DNA from: an uncultured Acidobacteriota bacterium
GTDB lineage: Bacteria; Acidobacteriota; Thermoanaerobaculia; Gp7-AA8
Length of the DNA: 64,000 nt
Assembly (NCBI GenBank): GCA_963741955.1
Contig: CAVUKB010000007.1
Location: 640,001-704,000 of the forward strand
Reading direction: 5' to 3'
The notes under the pieces are model-generated. The model worked only from the letters and a program-made list of their open reading frames with translations, did no database searches and had not been told where the DNA came from. A program made the translations under genes and the position numbers. Shown here one piece after another: positions 51,776 to 56,301 of this stretch. Position 1 is the first letter of the stretch; each line of letters begins with the position of its first letter.

Positions 51776-52459
51776 ATGACGATCACGCACGAAGACGTCG
51801 GAATTCTCCTCTTCACCCTCGAGGCTGCAGCGGTCGCGACGGTGCTGATCTTCCCGCTCGCGCTCGTCCTCGCGGGGGGAATGCGGAAGCTCCCGTCCGC
51901 GGTGCGGCCGTTCGCGGAGGCCGTCCTCTCGCTTCCGCTGGTGCTGCCGCCCACCGCGGTGGGCTTTCTTCTACTCGTCATCCTCTCGCGACGCGGCTCG
52001 GTCGGCGCGCTTCTCGAGCGTGCGGGGATCGAGATCGTCTTCACGCCCGCGGCAGTAGTGATCGCGGCGGCAGTGATGGCGTTCCCGCTCATGTTCCGCT
52101 CCTTCCGCGTTGCGATCGACGCGGCGGAGTTCCGCTACTTCGACATCGCCCGGACTCTCGGCGCCGGCCCGGTGAAGGCGTTCGTTCGCGTGGTCCTTCC
52201 GCTCTCGTGGCGGGGACTCCTCGCCGGTGTGGTCCTCGCGTACTGCCGCGCGATTGGAGAATTCGGTGCGACCATGCTCATCGCCGGCAACATCCCCGGC
52301 CGCACGCAGACCATCGCTCTCGGTATTTTCCAGCGGGTCGAGAGCGGTCATGAAGAGAAAGCGGTGATCCTTCTCCTCTTTGCGGTCGCCATCGCGCTCG
52401 GCGCGATGGCAGCGAGCGAATGGCTGATGCGGAGCCATCAGAGGAGAGTGAGCCGGTGA
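51776..52459 (+). CDS. modB: Molybdate ABC transporter permease
   Basis: LPLVLPPTAVGF, ARTLGA and RAIGEFGATMLIAGNIPGRTQT. Confidence 0.93.
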   Translation: MTITHEDVGILLFTLEAAAVATVLIFPLALVLAGGMRKLPSAVRPFAEAVLSLPLVLPPTAVGFLLLVILSRRGSVGALLERAGIEIVFTPAAVVIAAAVMAFPLMFRSFRVAIDAAEFRYFDIARTLGAGPVKAFVRVVLPLSWRGLLAGVVLAYCRAIGEFGATMLIAGNIPGRTQTIALGIFQRVESGHEEKAVILLLFAVAIALGAMAASEWLMRSHQRRVSR

Positions 52460-53505
52460 TCGAGCTTTCTCTGAACGTGCCGCTCTCCGAATTCGACCTG
52501 CGGGTCGACACGACGCTCAGCGGCTCGGTAACCGCCGTGGTGGGTCCTTCGGGTGCGGGAAAGACCTCTCTGCTCGAGACGATCGCAGGGCTTCGACCTC
52601 TTGCGACGGGACGCATCGCGGTCGGAGGGAGAACGGTCATGGACTCGGCTCGAGGGGTGGACGTCCCGCCGGAGCGGAGGAGGTTCGGCTACGTCCCGCA
52701 GGACGTCGCTCTCTTCCCGCATCTCGACGTCCGACGGAACATACTCTTCGGGGCGAAGAAGGGCGCCGAGCCCGCCGAGCTGATCGCGATCCTCGGGCTC
52801 GAGCCGCTTCTCCACCGCTATCCGTCGAGGCTCTCCGGGGGCGAGAAGCAGCGGGTGGCGCTCGCGCGTGCGTTGATGACTGCTCCGGATCTCCTCCTTC
52901 TCGACGAGCCGCTCGCCGCGCTCGACCCTTCTCTCAAGGAGCGCGTCGTCCGGCATCTCCGGAAGATCCGCGAGCACGTACGGATTCCGATGATCTACGT
53001 CACGCACCAGATCGTCGAAGCGCTCGCCCTGAGCGACGAGACGATCGTCCTTTCGCGAGGAGAAGTGGTCGCTGCCGGCAAATCGAGCGAGGTGTTGCGG
53101 CGGGCTTCGGTCGCCGGAAGCGAAGCGCTGGAGAATGTCTTCGAGGTCGACGATCCGGTGTCGGAGCCGGAGGGAGGAACGGTGAGGGTGCGGACGCGCG
53201 AAGGAGTCTCTCTCGTCCTTCCGTCGGATCTGGTGAGTGCGGCCGAATTTCCGATCGCGGTCCGGATCAGCGGGGAGGAAGTTCTGCTGTTCGCCGAGGA
53301 GCCGAGGGCGGTCTCCGCGCGCAACGTCCTGAGCGGTATCATTCTCGGAATCGAATCCAGCGACGGAATTGCGGACGTGACGATCGATGCCGTCTCCCTC
53401 CTGCGAGTCCGGATCACGGCCTCCGCGGCCGCGGATCTCCGGTTGGAGGAGGGGAAGAGAGTGTGGGTGGCGTTGCGGAGCCGTTCGTTCCGGATCGTCG
53501 GTTGA
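52456..53505 (+). CDS. modC: Molybdate ABC transporter ATP-binding protein
   Basis: GPSGAGKT, LSGGEKQR, LLLDEP and a C-terminal TOBE domain (SARN). Confidence 0.92.
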   Translation: MIELSLNVPLSEFDLRVDTTLSGSVTAVVGPSGAGKTSLLETIAGLRPLATGRIAVGGRTVMDSARGVDVPPERRRFGYVPQDVALFPHLDVRRNILFGAKKGAEPAELIAILGLEPLLHRYPSRLSGGEKQRVALARALMTAPDLLLLDEPLAALDPSLKERVVRHLRKIREHVRIPMIYVTHQIVEALALSDETIVLSRGEVVAAGKSSEVLRRASVAGSEALENVFEVDDPVSEPEGGTVRVRTREGVSLVLPSDLVSAAEFPIAVRISGEEVLLFAEEPRAVSARNVLSGIILGIESSDGIADVTIDAVSLLRVRITASAAADLRLEEGKRVWVALRSRSFRIVG

Positions 53506-53524
53506 GGTGGAGGAGGAGAGTGCC

Positions 53525-53764
53525 ATGAAGCTCCCGTGGAATCTGACCAGCGATGAGATCAGGGTGATGCAGGAGTTCCGGCTGCGGAAGAGCGAAGAGC
53601 TGTCACCGGACGAGATCGCTGCGATCAGACACCCGGCCGGAGGAGGGGTTGCTCCTGCGCAGTCGCTGGTCCGGAAGGGGTACCTGGACGAAGACGAAGA
53701 AAGTGGGCATTTTCGGCTCCGGCAGAGAGCGAAGGACTTTCTGGCAATCGATTACGTGCCGTGA
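53525..53764 (+). CDS. Small hypothetical protein, possibly winged helix
   Basis: GGAGGAG RBS; SLVRKGYL...FRL pattern. Confidence 0.6.
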   Translation: MKLPWNLTSDEIRVMQEFRLRKSEELSPDEIAAIRHPAGGGVAPAQSLVRKGYLDEDEESGHFRLRQRAKDFLAIDYVP

Positions 53765-53879
53765 AGTGGCAGGTCTGCAGATTCGTTTCACCGGATACGT
53801 GCGCCAAATGCTTGATGACATGGCACTTACGGGCGCAGGTGGAGCGCACTCCAGCCGGGCTCGCTTCCGCTAAGGCTTG

Positions 53880-53908
53880 TTGACGGAAGGACTTATCCGG
53901 TTTACGAT
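53880..53908 (+). promoter_or_regulatory. Sigma70-type promoter
   Basis: TTGACG-17 bp-TACGAT, then GAGG and an ATG at 53926. Confidence 0.7.
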
Positions 53909-53925
53909 GAGTGCGAGGTTTCCAG

Positions 53926-54384
53926 ATGAAAGGTGGCCAGAAGTCGGAGAGGCAATCAGGCAAATCCGTAAAGAAAGCATCCGATGAAAAAAGCCGAAAA
54001 AACGAAAACCTCCGCCAGAAAAGCTCCAAAGAAGCCGGCAAAAGCGGCAGCAAAAAAGGCCGTAGCGGCCAGGCCGTCTCGGCCAAAAGCGGCCCGGCCG
54101 GCAAAAAAAGCGCCCGCAAAGCCAGCCCGAAAGGCGGCAGCAAAGCCGGCAAAGAAAGCAGCCGCAAAAAAGCAGCCGCAAAAGCAACCGGCCAAGGCGG
54201 CGCCTCGAAAGGCCGCACCAAAAAAAGCGCGGCCGGTGGCAGCCGAACCGTCGCAGCAGCCGCCGGCCGAACGACGAAGCGAAGCGCCGCCGAAACCCCA
54301 GGCTTCAGTAATCCAGCGATCGCCGCAGCATTCAAGCGTGCAATCCGAAAGTACCCCGCCGCCTTTCGACGGCTCACGGACTAA
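53926..54384 (+). CDS. Basic low-complexity protein ending in a Doc-antitoxin-like helix (overlaps the next ORF in another frame)
   Basis: Has its own promoter and RBS; C-terminus IAAAFKRAIRKYPAAFRRLTD; stop codon falls exactly where the Doc domain begins. Confidence 0.55.
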   Translation: MKGGQKSERQSGKSVKKASDEKSRKNENLRQKSSKEAGKSGSKKGRSGQAVSAKSGPAGKKSARKASPKGGSKAGKESSRKKAAAKATGQGGASKGRTKKSAAGGSRTVAAAAGRTTKRSAAETPGFSNPAIAAAFKRAIRKYPAAFRRLTD

Positions 54385-54826
54385 TGCCGCTGCGGTTCGC
54401 TATCTCACTCCTCAGGACGTGATCGAGCTGCATCGAGCGGTCTCCACCGAGTACGGTGGAACGCACGCACAGCCTGGTGCGCTCGCTTCGCAGTTCGGAC
54501 TCCAGAACGCCATCCAGCGACCGCAAGCGACCATCATGGGCCGCGATGCGTACGCCACGCTTCCGGAAAAGGCAGCGGCGTTCTTCTTCGCGCTCCTTCA
54601 GAACACGCCGTTCGAGACGGGAAACCGGCGTGTCGCTCTGGCATCGCTGGTCGCATTCTGTGAGGTGAACCGCTGTCAGATCGACGGACGGGCGATCGAC
54701 GAGAAATCGCTCGAGAATCTCGTCAAACGCGGTGCGAGCTACCGCGAGCAGGGTGTTCCGCCCGAGGTCGTGTTCGCGGAGATCCGGGAGGCGATGTCGC
54801 GCGCGATCGTACCGATGAGCTCCTGA
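53984..54826 (+). CDS. Doc/Fic-family protein with a histone-H1-like (Ala/Lys/Pro) N-terminal extension and a degenerate Fic motif
   Basis: RYLTPQDVIELH, LQNAIQRP, DAYATLPEKAAA and NTPFETGNRR in place of HPFxDGNKR. Confidence 0.8.
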   Translation: MKKAEKTKTSARKAPKKPAKAAAKKAVAARPSRPKAARPAKKAPAKPARKAAAKPAKKAAAKKQPQKQPAKAAPRKAAPKKARPVAAEPSQQPPAERRSEAPPKPQASVIQRSPQHSSVQSESTPPPFDGSRTNAAAVRYLTPQDVIELHRAVSTEYGGTHAQPGALASQFGLQNAIQRPQATIMGRDAYATLPEKAAAFFFALLQNTPFETGNRRVALASLVAFCEVNRCQIDGRAIDEKSLENLVKRGASYREQGVPPEVVFAEIREAMSRAIVPMSS

Positions 54827-54906
54827 CTGGCCGAATCGGTGCGTCGAATGCGGCGCGAGTTTCCCTGGCGGGCTGGAGTGGTCCATAATTCGGTACGGGT
54901 GAACCC

Positions 54907-56301
54907 ATGTCCGATTCCACGTCCTTGCCGGCGCGACTGATCCCACTGTTGATCGCCTTGAGCCTTCTCTTTCCCCTCTCCGGGATTGCGAAGGTCATCA
55001 GGATCACCATCGACGGCCCGATTCATCCCATCGTCGAGGAGTACGTGGAGCGTGCGGTTGCGGCGGCGGAACGTGAGAAAGCGGATGCGCTTCTGATCGA
55101 GCTGCGTACGCCCGGCGGACTCGAGTCATCGACGCGGAAGATCGTCCACCAGATCGTGAGCTCGCCGGTGCCGGTCATCATCTGGGTGACTCCGAGCGGA
55201 AGCCGCGCCGCATCGGCGGGATTCTTCATTCTCGAATCGGCAGACGTGGCTGCCATGGCGCCCGGGACGAACACCGGAGCCGCGCACCCGGTCCTTCTCG
55301 TCGGTCAGGACAAGATCGACGACGTGATGAAAAAGAAGATCGAGAACGACTCGGCGGCTTTCATGCGCTCGATCGCCTCGAAACGCGGCCGGAACGTGAA
55401 GATAGCCGAGAGCGCGGTGCGTGAGTCGACTTCGATGACTGACGAGGAAGCGCTGAAGGACGGCGTGATCGACTACGTCGCCCGCGATCAGAAGGAGCTG
55501 TTCGCGAAGGTCTCCTCGAGACCGGTGCGGCGGTTCGATGGATCGACGGTGAAACTCTCGCTGGTCGGAGATCCGGTCGAAGATCGCGGGATGACGCTCA
55601 AGCAGCGGCTCCTCGCATATCTGATGGATCCGAACATCGCGTTCATCCTATTCTCGGTGGGGATGCTCGGCATCTGGGCGGAGCTGAGCCATCCGGGCGC
55701 CATCTTCCCCGGAGTGGTGGGAGGGATCGCGATCCTCCTCTCCGTCTTCGCCTTCAATCTGCTTCCGACCAGTTACGCCGCCGTCCTGCTCATCGTCGCG
55801 GCGTTCGTCCTCTTCGCTCTCGAAGCGAAGTTCGCCAGTCACGGAGTGCTCGGAATCGGAGGAGTCGTCTGCATGGTCTTCGGTGCGCTGCTGCTCGTTG
55901 ACGGACCGATTCCGGAGATGCGGGTGAAGCTGATCACCGCGCTCGCCGTGAGCATTCCCTTCGGTATCATTGCCGTCTTCCTGATGAGTCTCGCGTTGAG
56001 GGCGAGACGGGGACGGGTGGTCACCGGCGAACAGGGGATGATCGGCGAAGTGGGTGTGGCCCGCACTCCGCTCGATCCGTCGGGCAGAATTTTCGTTCAC
56101 GGAGAGCTCTGGAATGCGCGCTCGATTCAACCCGTCGGAACCGGATCGAAGGTGATCGTCACCGCGATCGAGGGACTCGAACTGACTGTCGCGCCGCTCA
56201 TCGAAACCATTCCCGCGGCCGGAGGAGGGGAAACTTCCTCGAAACCCCCGCAGCCCCCGGCGGAAGCGCATCCGTCGTCGGGAACTTCCGGTCCTAACTG
56301 A
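54907..56301 (+). CDS. NfeD (long form with a ClpP-like serine protease domain)
   Basis: TPGG, RAASAG, AMAPGTNTGAAHP, TM region and C-terminal GRIFVHGELWNA. Confidence 0.93.
   Translation: MSDSTSLPARLIPLLIALSLLFPLSGIAKVIRITIDGPIHPIVEEYVERAVAAAEREKADALLIELRTPGGLESSTRKIVHQIVSSPVPVIIWVTPSGSRAASAGFFILESADVAAMAPGTNTGAAHPVLLVGQDKIDDVMKKKIENDSAAFMRSIASKRGRNVKIAESAVRESTSMTDEEALKDGVIDYVARDQKELFAKVSSRPVRRFDGSTVKLSLVGDPVEDRGMTLKQRLLAYLMDPNIAFILFSVGMLGIWAELSHPGAIFPGVVGGIAILLSVFAFNLLPTSYAAVLLIVAAFVLFALEAKFASHGVLGIGGVVCMVFGALLLVDGPIPEMRVKLITALAVSIPFGIIAVFLMSLALRARRGRVVTGEQGMIGEVGVARTPLDPSGRIFVHGELWNARSIQPVGTGSKVIVTAIEGLELTVAPLIETIPAAGGGETSSKPPQPPAEAHPSSGTSGPN

Follow-up and report, generated by a model that had tools for sequence, protein, structure and literature searches.

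We found that a soil Thermoanaerobaculia bacterium carries a locus in which a stretch of about 400 bases apparently codes for two different proteins, one in each of two reading frames. In relatives, both frames, both of their ATG codons and the C-terminal helix of the shorter protein (frame B) are conserved, and the longer protein (frame A) has a domain with the Doc fold that has lost the catalytic His. We think that the locus is probably a domesticated toxin-antitoxin pair in which one and the same DNA codes for both partners, each in a reading frame of its own. The stretch of DNA analyzed, 64,000 nucleotides long, is called the window below. The features of the locus are as follows.

53522..53764, + strand: small ORF of about 80 aa, conserved, with a winged-helix fold; possible third component or regulator
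53880..53908, + strand: sigma-70-like promoter, TTGACG-17 nt-TACGAT
53915..53918, + strand: Shine-Dalgarno GAGG, read from the sequence, 7 nt ahead of the frame B ATG
53926..54384, + strand: frame B coding sequence, ATG 53926 to TAA 54382-54384, 152 aa; Lys/Ser/Gly/Ala-rich tail, then a conserved C-terminal helix motif
53933..53971, + strand: remnant of the frame A start; GTG replacing the family's ATG, 7 nt past the frame B ATG, closed by TAA after 12 codons
53984..54826, + strand: frame A coding sequence, ATG 53984 to TGA 54826, 280 aa; Lys/Ala/Pro tail, Ser/Pro/Thr-rich linker, Doc-like domain
54304..54381, + strand: conserved motif of frame B, F-S-N-P-A-I-A-A-A-F-K-R-A-I-R-K-Y-P-A-A-F-R-R-L-T-D; the same DNA encodes the frame A linker
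54401..54658, + strand: Fic/DOC domain (PF02661), frame A aa 140-225; 41.5 bits, cut-off 24, E 2.4e-10
54605..54631, + strand: degenerate Fic/Doc active-site motif, T-P-F-E-T-G-N-R-R, with Thr at the catalytic His position

The two frames overlap at 53984-54384, that is, over 401 nt, and frame B stops just ahead of the Doc-like domain. The protein of frame B is basic (pI 11.7), and its C-terminal end in the window is IAAAFKRAIRKYPAAFRRLTD. K, A and P make up 25%, 24% and 23% of the frame A tail, whose net charge is about +25. The sole promoter-like site in 53400-55000 was TTGACG-17-TACGAT (1 found vs 0.2 expected). A preliminary description of this DNA had proposed about 400 bp open in two + frames, with frame A running from a basic tail into a Doc/Fic domain that has no separate in-frame start near it, and with a likewise basic frame B under its own TTGACG/TACGAT promoter and GAGG. 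All of these points were borne out, and both ORFs are as described. No frame A ATG lies near the Doc-like domain in the window; the nearest alternative is the GTG at 54338, which is unconserved in relatives. An assembly indel at 54384, which the same description had considered, was rejected, since a further sample from the same study yielded a contig that runs over 54232-54575 without a difference, and the layout is common to all relatives. Logan contigs served for this check, in which the source sample may itself be the first run.

At the site of the window's GTG 53933 the relatives have ATGAAGCATGGCG, and frame A is open from that ATG. In the window genome this canonical start is broken, so that translation of frame A must begin at ATG 53984. 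The translation of frame A is less certain in the window genome than in relatives, because the canonical start has become a GTG with an in-frame TAA behind it and because no evident Shine-Dalgarno precedes ATG 53984 in the window sequence. The site at 53933-53971 was covered by the probable source sample only.

Long shadow ORFs are common in the G+C-rich DNA of the window. When the window was resampled with synonymous codons, the probability that frame A is open given the frame B protein was about 0.5, and the probability that frame B is open given the frame A protein was about 0.05-0.065. For the window by itself, having both frames open is no more than mildly unusual and barely past chance.

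We then consider the relatives, of which two sets were used. The first set consisted of full-length matches in 24 relatives. The second came from a scan of species-representative genomes, which gave 141 relatives; the best 80 of the 141, all of them Thermoanaerobaculia/Acidobacteriota MAGs, were taken, and 78 of those were analyzable. The loci were selected on the Doc domain alone, and the tails played no part in the selection. The loci are related and non-independent, and the two sets partly overlap, some loci being on the same contigs.

Both frames were open with paired ATGs in 23 of the 24 relatives of the first set. The offset between the paired ATGs was 7 nt in 22 of these 23 and 4 nt in L033, which represents a second family. 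In the second set, both frames were open in all 78 analyzable loci from the best 80 of 141, and the offset was 7 nt in every case. Frame A was unbroken from its ATG to the Doc domain in 23/24 relatives and 78/78 loci, and a frame B ORF running from ATG to stop, with the same N-terminus (MKHGDKAK-like) and the same C-terminus, was present in the same proportions. The tails of the 78 loci are all distinct sequences of 72-155 codons. The promoter region was also conserved in an alignment of 77 loci, with the consensus TTGACTCAG..ACTTAAC..TACGAT. In these 77 loci the spacer between GAGG and the frame B ATG was 6 nt in 49 and 7 nt in 21, and an exact GAGG was absent in 7. One relative, L016, differs: a frame switch in mid-tail joins a B-type start to the Doc frame, and the helix frame has no ATG. 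L016 is annotated as a 367-aa protein, and its frame switch may be a genuine mutation or may stem from an error of assembly.

In synonymous resampling of the 78 loci, frame A was expected to be open in 15.5 and frame B in 21.7; each was observed open in 78. The P values of this resampling are overstated because the null is imperfect, as it predicted an open third frame, which is under no selection, in 6.5 loci and 30 of the 78 were observed. In the first 19 loci, the mean P was 0.245 for frame A and 0.10 for frame B, and 19/19 were open. Permutation of the synonymous codons of frame B within each sequence told nothing about frame A (P 1.0 in most loci), as no stop-creating codons at all occur in those sequences. 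By this comparison, the double-frame pattern across relatives lies far beyond chance. Both frames are open with their own starts in divergent relatives more often than chance allows, as is expected of a same-strand dual-coding pair.

The domain at the end of frame A has the Doc fold. A genome-wide PF02661 scan of this genome found the locus at 45 bits. The model of the Doc-like domain had a pLDDT of 92, and its best PDB folds were those of P1 Doc (3dd7_A and 3k33_A; TMt 0.75-0.77, E 5e-5 to 9e-5). By sequence, the nearest PDB entries were 9vzc_A (E 3e-8) and 3k33_A (E 0.0038), and the NCBIfam model TIGR01550 DOC_P1 scored 23.7 bits, under its cut-off of 38.65. The active-site motif was read by alignment to canonical Doc (HPFIDGNKR) and to PDB Docs. 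The motif of active Doc, a kinase of EF-Tu, is H-x-F-x-(D/N)-(A/G)-N-K-R with an essential His, and it was not found in the window. In the 78 loci, the His column holds R in 36, S in 33, L in 4, H in 2, M in 2 and A in 1, so the His is missing in 76 of them. The acidic/amide (D/N) column of the motif holds G in 73 loci and T in 5. The G-N-R-R phosphate-binding loop is kept, its N and second R being invariant. The term "pseudo-toxin", which had been applied to this protein beforehand, fits the loss of the motif His in 76 of the 78 loci and in the window.

The frame B protein ends in a motif with the consensus F-x-N-P-x-V-A-x-A-F-K-R-A-V-K-K-Y-P-x-A-F-R-R-L-T-D. In the alignment of this motif (A4), the residues F15, A23, F24, R26, A27, Y31 and D40 were at least 90% conserved, and K30 and L38 were invariant. 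The conservation of the terminal helix, which the preliminary description had named as a check, is thus strong. No Pfam or NCBIfam family was found for frame B in the window protein and in the B proteins of two relatives, and the same search of these three proteins showed that an N-terminal DNA-binding domain of the AbrB/MazE or Phd/YefM type is absent. When alignment A4 was compared by hhalign with 34 MazE-type Doc antitoxins, the match had P 2.1e-4, with a probability of only 46%, and covered 21 columns, C-terminus to C-terminus. In addition, the window genome itself carries elsewhere a canonical pair (L021) of a MazE-type antitoxin and a Doc with HPFIDGNKR, and the end of that antitoxin resembles the frame B motif. 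The canonical antitoxin has a weak PF04014 match (E 0.0037), and its relatives are named AbrB/MazE.

The complex of the frame B helix with the Doc-like domain was predicted with a score of 0.88, and the best of 3 controls scored 0.02. Among solved complexes, 58 of 80 reached the mark used for this score, as did 2 of 110 mismatched pairs. The partners had a pLDDT of at least 72, and the runs shared at least 91% of contacts. In the model, the interface is formed by the Fic loop (residues 83-87) and the conserved hydrophobic face of frame B, whose residues 13-40 take part. The score may partly reflect likeness to Phd-Doc, because Phd-Doc complexes have already been solved. The frame B helix is thus predicted to lie across the Fic loop when docked on the Doc-like domain, in the manner of Phd on Doc. 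According to one report (PMC9207808), the part of Phd that binds Doc is a two-helix segment at its C-terminus. The arrangement of the genes is also that of operons with the antitoxin upstream: frame B, on the same strand as the Doc domain, ends 4-7 codons ahead of it, and a single promoter and a single Shine-Dalgarno precede both, although the out-of-frame overlap makes the layout unusual. The toxin-antitoxin origin proposed in the preliminary description gains support from the likeness to MazE/AbrB-type Doc antitoxins in hhalign and from the control-passing complex prediction.

A further conserved gene lies upstream. The small ORF was found directly upstream in 23 of 25 loci by tblastn, with a mean column identity of 64% in its alignment (A5). 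No Pfam or NCBIfam match was found for it. Its AlphaFold model (pLDDT 82) has an H-H-H-hairpin-H topology, and the best PDB matches in Foldseek were MarR-type regulators (TMq 0.66-0.71), with weak E values of 0.01-0.1. These winged-helix matches were consistent with one another despite the weak E values. The small ORF may be a third component or a regulator of the module.

The next question is whether the pair still acts as a working toxin-antitoxin system, with the same layout, in which the Doc-like protein would be a growth-inhibiting enzyme acting through other residues and frame B a labile antitoxin. We consider this unlikely. The conserved Doc fold and the retained G-N-R-R loop with its invariant residues would suit such an enzyme, the modeled binding of frame B would cover the active-site loop, and the His is present in 2 of the 78 loci. 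Against these points stand the missing His in the other 76 loci and in the window, the G or T at the acidic/amide position in all 78 loci, and the loss of the DNA-binding domain of the antitoxin. Typical toxin-antitoxin loci are patchy in distribution, whereas the present locus is near-universal in its order and has a conserved upstream neighbor. By family, it was found in 21/24, 1/1 and 2/2 genomes, that is, in 24/27 genomes of the order, and the three genomes without it are 73, 78 and 94% complete. The remainder of the class showed weak canonical-type matches only. Furthermore, a paper on P1 Doc (PMC2686095) reports that the toxin becomes non-toxic when its motif His is mutated.

A second possibility is that only the frame B ATG serves as a start and that ribosomes get to the Doc-like domain through a shift into frame A, programmed or driven by slippage, at the A-runs or at the frame B stop, giving a fusion of tail, (helix) and Doc. 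We regard this as quite unlikely. The distance from the frame B stop to the Doc domain is indeed fixed at 4-7 codons, and 60 of the 78 loci have 5, the domain has no start of its own, A-runs of 5-9 occur in every overlap, the frame B ATG is the better spaced from the Shine-Dalgarno, and in L016 a fusion of the B start to Doc exists as DNA. This reading, however, gives no reason for frame A to be open back to its ATG, and yet the ATG is kept in 78/78 loci by the rarer xAT codons. Codon 3 of frame B was CAT in 58 and GAT in 20 of the 78 loci and never CAC or GAC, and codon 4 was GGC in 78/78; the ATG of frame A is formed jointly by xAT of codon 3 and GGC of codon 4. In the second family, the frame A ATG occurs at another spacing (4 nt). 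A shift from B to A needs +1. A prfB-like +1 shift at the frame B stop was ruled out by the codon context, since the P-site GAC before TGA or TAA gives no +1 re-pairing. Programmed frameshift genes such as dnaX (-1) and prfB (+1) resemble the locus in giving two products from overlapping frames, and 66 of the 78 loci have A_AAA_AAG heptamers in frame A. These dnaX-type A_AAA_AAR heptamers, however, would shift A to B, not B to A, and are missing in 12/78 loci. The locus differs from such genes in that each frame has its own conserved ATG, that no +1-compatible site is present at the frame B stop and that the heptamers are not universal; no conserved slippery site linking B to A in the needed direction was found in the 78 loci.

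The locus could also be a common operon of two briefly overlapping genes, with frame B as the upstream one. The start of the Doc-like gene would then be a GTG, TTG or CTG inside the linker (54338 here), and the frame A tail would be an untranslated shadow ORF. We judge this to be very unlikely. It is often annotated in this way: public records hold either a long fusion or a shortened "Fic family protein" of 155-167 aa that begins at an unconserved internal start, and many such "Fic family" or "death on curing" entries start in the linker. Frame B is almost never annotated, and 18 frame B proteins from metagenomes bear the label "hypothetical". The window has its GTG at 54338, and Lys-rich, A-rich DNA tends to be open in several frames, as the third frame was in 30 of the 78 loci. 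On the other hand, 42 of the 78 loci have no ATG, GTG or TTG in the 45 codons preceding the domain, and no internal start position is common to more than 5 of the 78. Thus, homologues did not show the simple arrangement of two genes, the Doc gene having a normal start, that had been named earlier as the alternative, and frame A is open from its conserved ATG far more often than the 15.5 loci expected.

Codon choices in frame B also argue against an untranslated frame A tail. The invariant Leu before T-D was encoded by CTG in 0/78 loci, although the usage of CTG in the Doc domain was 0.41, and the Val or Leu before K-K was never encoded by GTG or CTG. CTG at the former, or GTG or CTG at the latter, would make a stop in frame A. 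The third codon positions of the frame B helix are 67% C and 15% G, compared with 46% and 38% in the Doc domain, and these C-rich third positions keep the frame A linker rich in Ser, Pro, Thr and Ala. Lysine was encoded by AAA in 1344 of 1452 cases in the frame B tail vs 117 of 302 in the Doc domain, and the choice of AAA rather than AAG preserves the lysines of frame A. Of the 1452 lysines in the frame B tails, 1326 share an A-run with a frame A lysine; common AAAA or AAAG quadruplets are the source of most lysines in both tails. T never precedes a Lys codon of frame A.

It is hardly credible that frame A is the sole gene and frame B a chance shadow ORF of Lys-rich DNA: the probability of an open frame B in the window alone is not extreme and frame B has no Pfam or NCBIfam family, but its C-terminal 26 residues show conservative replacements where frame A varies radically over the same DNA, all 78 of 78 loci have it open, with its ATG and Shine-Dalgarno conserved, vs 21.7 expected, no frame A Lys codon follows a T, and it has both a likeness to antitoxin C-termini and a complex model that passes controls.

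We therefore return to the domesticated pair, which may work as follows. One mRNA with a short leader would be made from the conserved promoter, and ribosomes at the single GAGG would start at the proximal ATG, that of frame B. In relatives, they could alternatively start 7 nt further downstream, at a second ATG that lies in the +1 frame, which is that of frame A. A second ATG 13-14 nt from GAGG is poorly spaced for initiation. Frame B would be made in excess over frame A because of this start spacing. The frame B product would be a small basic protein with a kinked C-terminal helix derived from the Doc-binding tail of a MazE/AbrB-type antitoxin, whose DNA-binding domain would have been replaced by a Lys-rich disordered tail. 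The frame A product would consist of a Lys/Ala/Pro tail, a Ser/Pro/Thr linker and a Doc-fold domain that has lost the catalytic His and kept the G-N-R-R loop. The two would form a stable heterodimer, tethered to DNA or RNA by its two polycationic tails, and the Doc-like domain would serve as a non-kinase binding module rather than as a toxin.

As for known systems, one study (PMC1626090) describes composite loci of the mazE-doc, tasA-tasB type, in which a MazE/AbrB-type antitoxin is combined with a Doc toxin. Our locus shares with them the antitoxin gene immediately 5' of a Doc-fold gene, the C-terminal antitoxin pattern ...K-R-A-V...(K/R)-Y-x-x-x-F-R-R-L-x-(D/E)-stop and a downstream protein with the Doc fold. 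In contrast, a Lys-rich low-complexity tail here takes the place of the AbrB/MazE DNA-binding domain, the Doc partner is without the catalytic His and has a Lys/Ala/Pro tail of 70-150 residues, and the genes overlap out of frame by 240-470 nt instead of abutting. The locus is also order-wide and does not show the patchy distribution of mobile systems.

Phage P1 Phd-Doc (3K33, 3DD7) is the best structural match, with the TMt of 0.75-0.77 given above. According to the source cited above (PMC9207808), Phd neutralizes Doc through a kinked C-terminal two-helix segment, and frame B likewise has two helical stretches split by Pro; the interface predicted for frame B lies over the Fic loop. The differences are that frame B has no sequence similarity to Phd, that the TIGR01550 score remains under the cut-off and the motif His is missing, and that the Doc-like protein here has an extra C-terminal helix and an N-terminal tail.

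Long same-strand overlapping genes are known from comS inside srfA, gndA inside gnd and the overlaps of phage phiX174. As in these, two proteins are encoded on one strand in different frames, and one of them is missed or shortened by gene callers. In the present locus, however, the two products are one predicted interacting pair, the starts lie within 7 nt behind one Shine-Dalgarno, the overlap spans nearly the whole shorter gene, and many genera have kept the arrangement, in which the codons bear signs of selection on both frames.

Bacterial Lys/Ala/Pro-rich proteins resembling histone H1 include chlamydial Hc1/Hc2, AlgP and the tail of mycobacterial HupB. The frame A tail is likewise K/A/P-rich, with its net charge of about +25, and the protein of one relative, P0042, has a precomputed match to HC2 (PF07382). 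No PF07382 match was obtained with Pfam for the window's frame A protein at E <= 0.1. The locus differs from HC2 proteins in that the tail is fused to a Doc fold.

We tentatively extend the proposal, giving the whole somewhat less than even weight, to an order-wide, hard-wired former toxin-antitoxin pair. In such a pair, two ATGs 7 nt apart behind one Shine-Dalgarno would set the ratio of the antitoxin-derived helix protein to the catalytically dead Doc, the Lys tails, co-encoded base for base, would make a two-armed heterodimer acting on the nucleoid or the translation machinery, and the upstream winged-helix protein would take over the control of transcription. Tails that bind nucleic acids and a role in regulating the nucleoid or translation had been raised as possibilities in the preliminary description.

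In a literature search that took in a minority of the subscription journals, we found no description of this locus or layout. Long conserved same-strand overlaps out of frame are rarely well supported in bacteria and are excluded by annotation pipelines. The comparative evidence here is unusually clean, with about 80 distinct species-level loci, two conserved starts and mutually protective codon choices. The locus thus offers a natural test bed for the origin of overlapping genes, the two products being predicted partners, for the domestication of toxin-antitoxin systems, in which the catalytic His and the DNA-binding domain were lost and disordered tails gained, and for the way in which competition between start codons can fix the stoichiometry of two proteins. 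If the extended proposal of a hard-wired pair holds, the locus would be the first known from a cellular genome where partners that interact are read out of frame from one sequence.

The Doc locus of the window consists of two overlapping reading frames, that is, frame A, in which a lysine-rich tail runs into a Fic/Doc domain, and frame B, an antitoxin-like frame that starts upstream of it. The following features were located.

52420-53505, + strand: upstream ModC-like ATPase of an ABC transporter, carrying a TOBE domain at its C-terminus; neighbours the locus in 7 of 25 cases
53522-53764, + strand: small ORF (about 80 aa) that immediately precedes the locus in 23 of 25 cases
53880-53908, + strand: promoter-like TTGACG-17-TACGAT, the sole such site in 53400-55000 (1 found, 0.2 expected)
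53915-53918, + strand: GAGG, 7 nt 5' of the frame B ATG
53926 (ATG) to 54382-54384 (TAA), + strand: frame B coding sequence, 152 aa
53984 (ATG) to 54824-54826 (stop), + strand: frame A coding sequence, 280 aa
54907-57167, + strand: NfeD-family membrane protein of 464 aa with four Pfam NfeD/Clp hits, then a 258-aa ORF

The preliminary description had claimed that two forward frames are open over about 400 bp and that frame B has its own promoter and GAGG. Both claims agreed with our analysis: the two ORFs have 401 nt in common, frame A being +1 relative to frame B, and the promoter-like site and the GAGG stand ahead of the frame B ATG. Residues 1-100 of frame A are rich in Lys, Ala and Pro (pI 12.0; 34 K+R, 4 D+E). 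Frame B, for which Pfam and NCBIfam gave no family, ends in IAAAFKRAIRKYPAAFRRLTD, a few codons ahead of the R-Y-L-T at the beginning of the Doc domain. In an alignment of 77 loci over window positions 53860-53925 the promoter was conserved. The conservation reached well past the two hexamers at -35 and -10 (consensus CGCGTAAAC..CATTGACTCAG..ACTTAAC..TACGAT), and this sequence could be an operator. CGTAACG/CGTTACG inverted repeats flank the promoter region in some loci.

In the window alone, the double openness is weak evidence. Shadow ORFs abound in this G+C-rich DNA, and synonymous resampling gave a probability of about 0.5 that frame A is open given the frame B protein, and of about 0.05-0.065 for the reverse. 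Of 41 related genomes searched in six frames, 27 gave matches, the window's genome included, and 24 relatives gave full-length, high-scoring ones. The locus was present in 21 of 24, 1 of 1 and 2 of 2 genomes of the families within the order; the three genomes without it are 73, 78 and 94% complete. The rest of the class showed weak matches only, as expected of canonical Doc or Fic genes. In 23 of the 24 relatives frame A was open from its ATG through the end of the Doc domain, while frame B, likewise open, ran from a separate ATG up to a stop shortly ahead of that domain. The two ATGs were offset by 7 nt in 22 relatives (ATGAAGCATGGCG) and by 4 nt in L033, a locus from a different family (ATGAATGGCA). 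The exception is L016 (contig C2 of genome G025, oriented about 1250-1920), where a one-base frame switch in mid-tail shifts both frames: the B-type start (MNDGQK) continues into the Doc frame, which is publicly annotated as a 367-aa protein, and the frame of the conserved helix has no ATG over its 192 open codons. The switch is either genuine or an error of the assembly at a homopolymer.

Patterns taken solely from the Doc domain picked out 141 relatives in species-representative genomes. The top 80 of these were all from Thermoanaerobaculia/Acidobacteriota MAGs; 2 were left out as too near a contig end. In all the remaining 78 loci both frames were open over 72-155 codons with the ATGs exactly 7 nt apart, and every tail sequence was distinct. 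The two sets partly overlap, some loci being from the same contigs, and no claim rests alone on L005, a locus from the unpublished genome G022. The locus is order-wide and near-universal.

When synonymous codons were drawn by the usage of the same loci's Doc domains, frame A was expected to be open in 15.5 and frame B in 21.7 of the 78 loci, against 78 observed for each. In the first set, 19 of 19 loci were open at mean probabilities of 0.245 (A) and 0.10 (B). This null model is imperfect, since the third frame was open in 30 of 78 loci against 6.5 predicted; the empirical comparison is therefore the fairest, in which an unselected frame is open in 38% of loci and frames A and B in 100%. No exact probability should be quoted, because the loci are related.

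The codon choices point the same way. Codon 3 of frame B was CAT (58) or GAT (20), never CAC or GAC, and codon 4 was GGC in 78 of 78 loci; together these codons form the frame A ATG. The invariant Leu before T-D in frame B was read from CTC or CTT in 75 loci and from CTG in none; CTG has a usage of 0.41 in the Doc domain, and followed by ACx it would give a TGA in frame A. Likewise, the Val, Leu or Ile before K-K in frame B was never GTG or CTG. C and G made up 67% and 15% of third positions in the frame B helix, compared with 46% and 38% in the Doc domain, which keeps Ser, Pro, Thr and Ala abundant in the frame A linker. Of 1452 frame B tail lysines, 1326 sit on the same A-run as a frame A lysine, and 1344 are AAA, compared with 117 of the 302 Doc-domain lysines. 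A T, which would create a TAA in frame B, preceded 0 of 1714 frame A Lys codons. Therefore, each frame deviates from normal codon usage so as to protect the other.

In line with the preliminary description, the Doc-like domain has no conserved start of its own: 42 of 78 loci lack ATG, GTG and TTG in the 45 preceding codons, and no candidate position was common to more than 5 loci. Public records are inconsistent: they give frame A either 155-167 aa, starting at linker codons that are not conserved, or 231-367 aa, and frame B is found there only as 18 'hypothetical' metagenome proteins. Since the domain has no conserved start, the 155-167 aa annotations look like artefacts of forbidding overlaps. 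Judged by the re-pairing mechanism of +1 shifts at stop codons, a +1 shift at the frame B stop is unlikely, as the P-site GAC before TGA/TAA allows no re-pairing. The dnaX-type A_AAA_AAR slippery heptamers (window 54052, 54103, 54166 and 54220; present in 66 and absent from 12 of 78 loci) are located in frame A, and would therefore send A into B (-1), not B into A. The simplest account would be two initiations off one ribosome-binding site. The GAGG lies 6-7 nt from the frame B ATG and hence 13-14 nt from that of frame A; the Shine-Dalgarno distance affects initiation, and this spacing would favour the B start. In the window, the canonical frame A start is GTG (53933), not ATG, followed by an in-frame TAA (53969-53971) that arises from the GTA Val codon of B; frame A restarts at ATG 53984, 51 nt beyond the canonical site, with no evident Shine-Dalgarno. 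Sequence coverage of 53933-53984 comes from the probable source sample only. Because the canonical start is broken, frame A expression is less certain in this genome than in relatives, and may need re-initiation after a 12-codon leader.

The Pfam Fic/DOC domain matched frame A residues 140-225 (41.5 bits, cut-off 24), while the stricter NCBIfam DOC_P1 gave 23.7 bits, under its cut-off of 38.65. Mean column identity of the domain was 70% among 25 genomes. The predicted model (pLDDT 92) came closest to P1 Doc, as solved in 3dd7_A and 3k33_A (TMt 0.75-0.77, E 5e-5 to 9e-5); the nearest solved Doc-family entries by sequence were 9vzc_A (E 3e-8) and 3k33_A (E 0.0038). P-F and G-N-R-R are retained in the active-site motif, but the motif is degenerate: the His column in the 78 loci holds R 36, S 33, L 4, H 2, M 2 and A 1, with Thr in the window, and the acidic/amide position G 73 and T 5. 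P1 Doc is reported to be non-toxic once the motif His is mutated (PMC2686095).

The helix closing frame B, a central element of the preliminary description, is kept: the 26 C-terminal residues are conserved, and exchanges among them are conservative (I/V, K/R, S/T), whereas frame A over the same DNA shows radical changes. The window's genome (G000) also carries a canonical antitoxin-Doc module, L021 (1222-1875; contig C5, about 869900-870555), an arrangement also found in two relatives. Its AbrB/MazE-type antitoxin (75-86 aa) ends in K-R-A-V and then R-Y-x-x-x-F-R-R-L-x-E-stop, as in the B pattern, and directly 3' follows a Doc with an intact HPFIDGNKR (stop at 1482, GTG start at 1486). Two further Fic-family matches in this genome are L022, within an open frame of 407 aa, and L024, which is short and lies within one of 62 aa. 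Composites of mazE and doc are already known (PMC1626090). Profile comparison of the B C-terminus with 34 MazE-type antitoxins aligned the C-termini end to end over 21 columns (P 2.1e-4, probability 46%). This alignment gives moderate support to a putative derivation of the B C-terminus from a MazE-type Doc antitoxin, and the support is strengthened by the position of B next to a Doc fold.

We modelled the Doc-like domain with the last 40 residues of B. The complex scored 0.88, where solved complexes get that high in 58 of 80 cases and mismatched pairs in 2 of 110; the best of 3 controls scored 0.02. Because Phd-Doc complexes are already solved, this result means likeness rather than binding. 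Partner pLDDT was at least 72, and at least 91% of contacts were common to the runs. The predicted interface joins a conserved hydrophobic face of B (I20, A23, F24, A27, Y31, A34, F35, L38) to three parts of the Doc-like domain, namely helix 1, the Fic loop at residues 83-87 and the helix after it. This modelled docking resembles that of the C-terminal two-helix segment of Phd, which binds Doc (PMC9207808).

The small upstream ORF has a conserved pattern (E-I-R-V-L-Q-E-F-R-R ... H-P-x-G-G-G ... K-G-Y-L) and no Pfam or NCBIfam family. It is a predicted winged helix (pLDDT 82) whose structural matches are of MarR type (TMq 0.66-0.71) with weak E values, and it may regulate the module. The NfeD gene adjoins the locus in 1 of 25 cases, the window's own; the 258-aa ORF after it is presumably SPFH/stomatin-like.

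The Doc fold, the MazE-type antitoxin tail, Lys-rich tails and overlapping genes are known parts. As far as we found, their combination is new, that is, partners out of frame in the same DNA, with paired starts, co-encoded lysines and order-wide conservation; a full-text literature search, with most subscription journals outside its coverage, found no account of such a locus. We infer that the locus is a domesticated toxin-antitoxin pair, in which B would permanently complement or cap a non-catalytic Doc fold. The main functional rival is a toxin-antitoxin system that still works. The lost DNA-binding role of the antitoxin may have moved to the winged-helix neighbour, and the heterodimer would carry two polycationic disordered tails (mean net charge +25 and +16) suited to DNA, RNA or ribosome binding.
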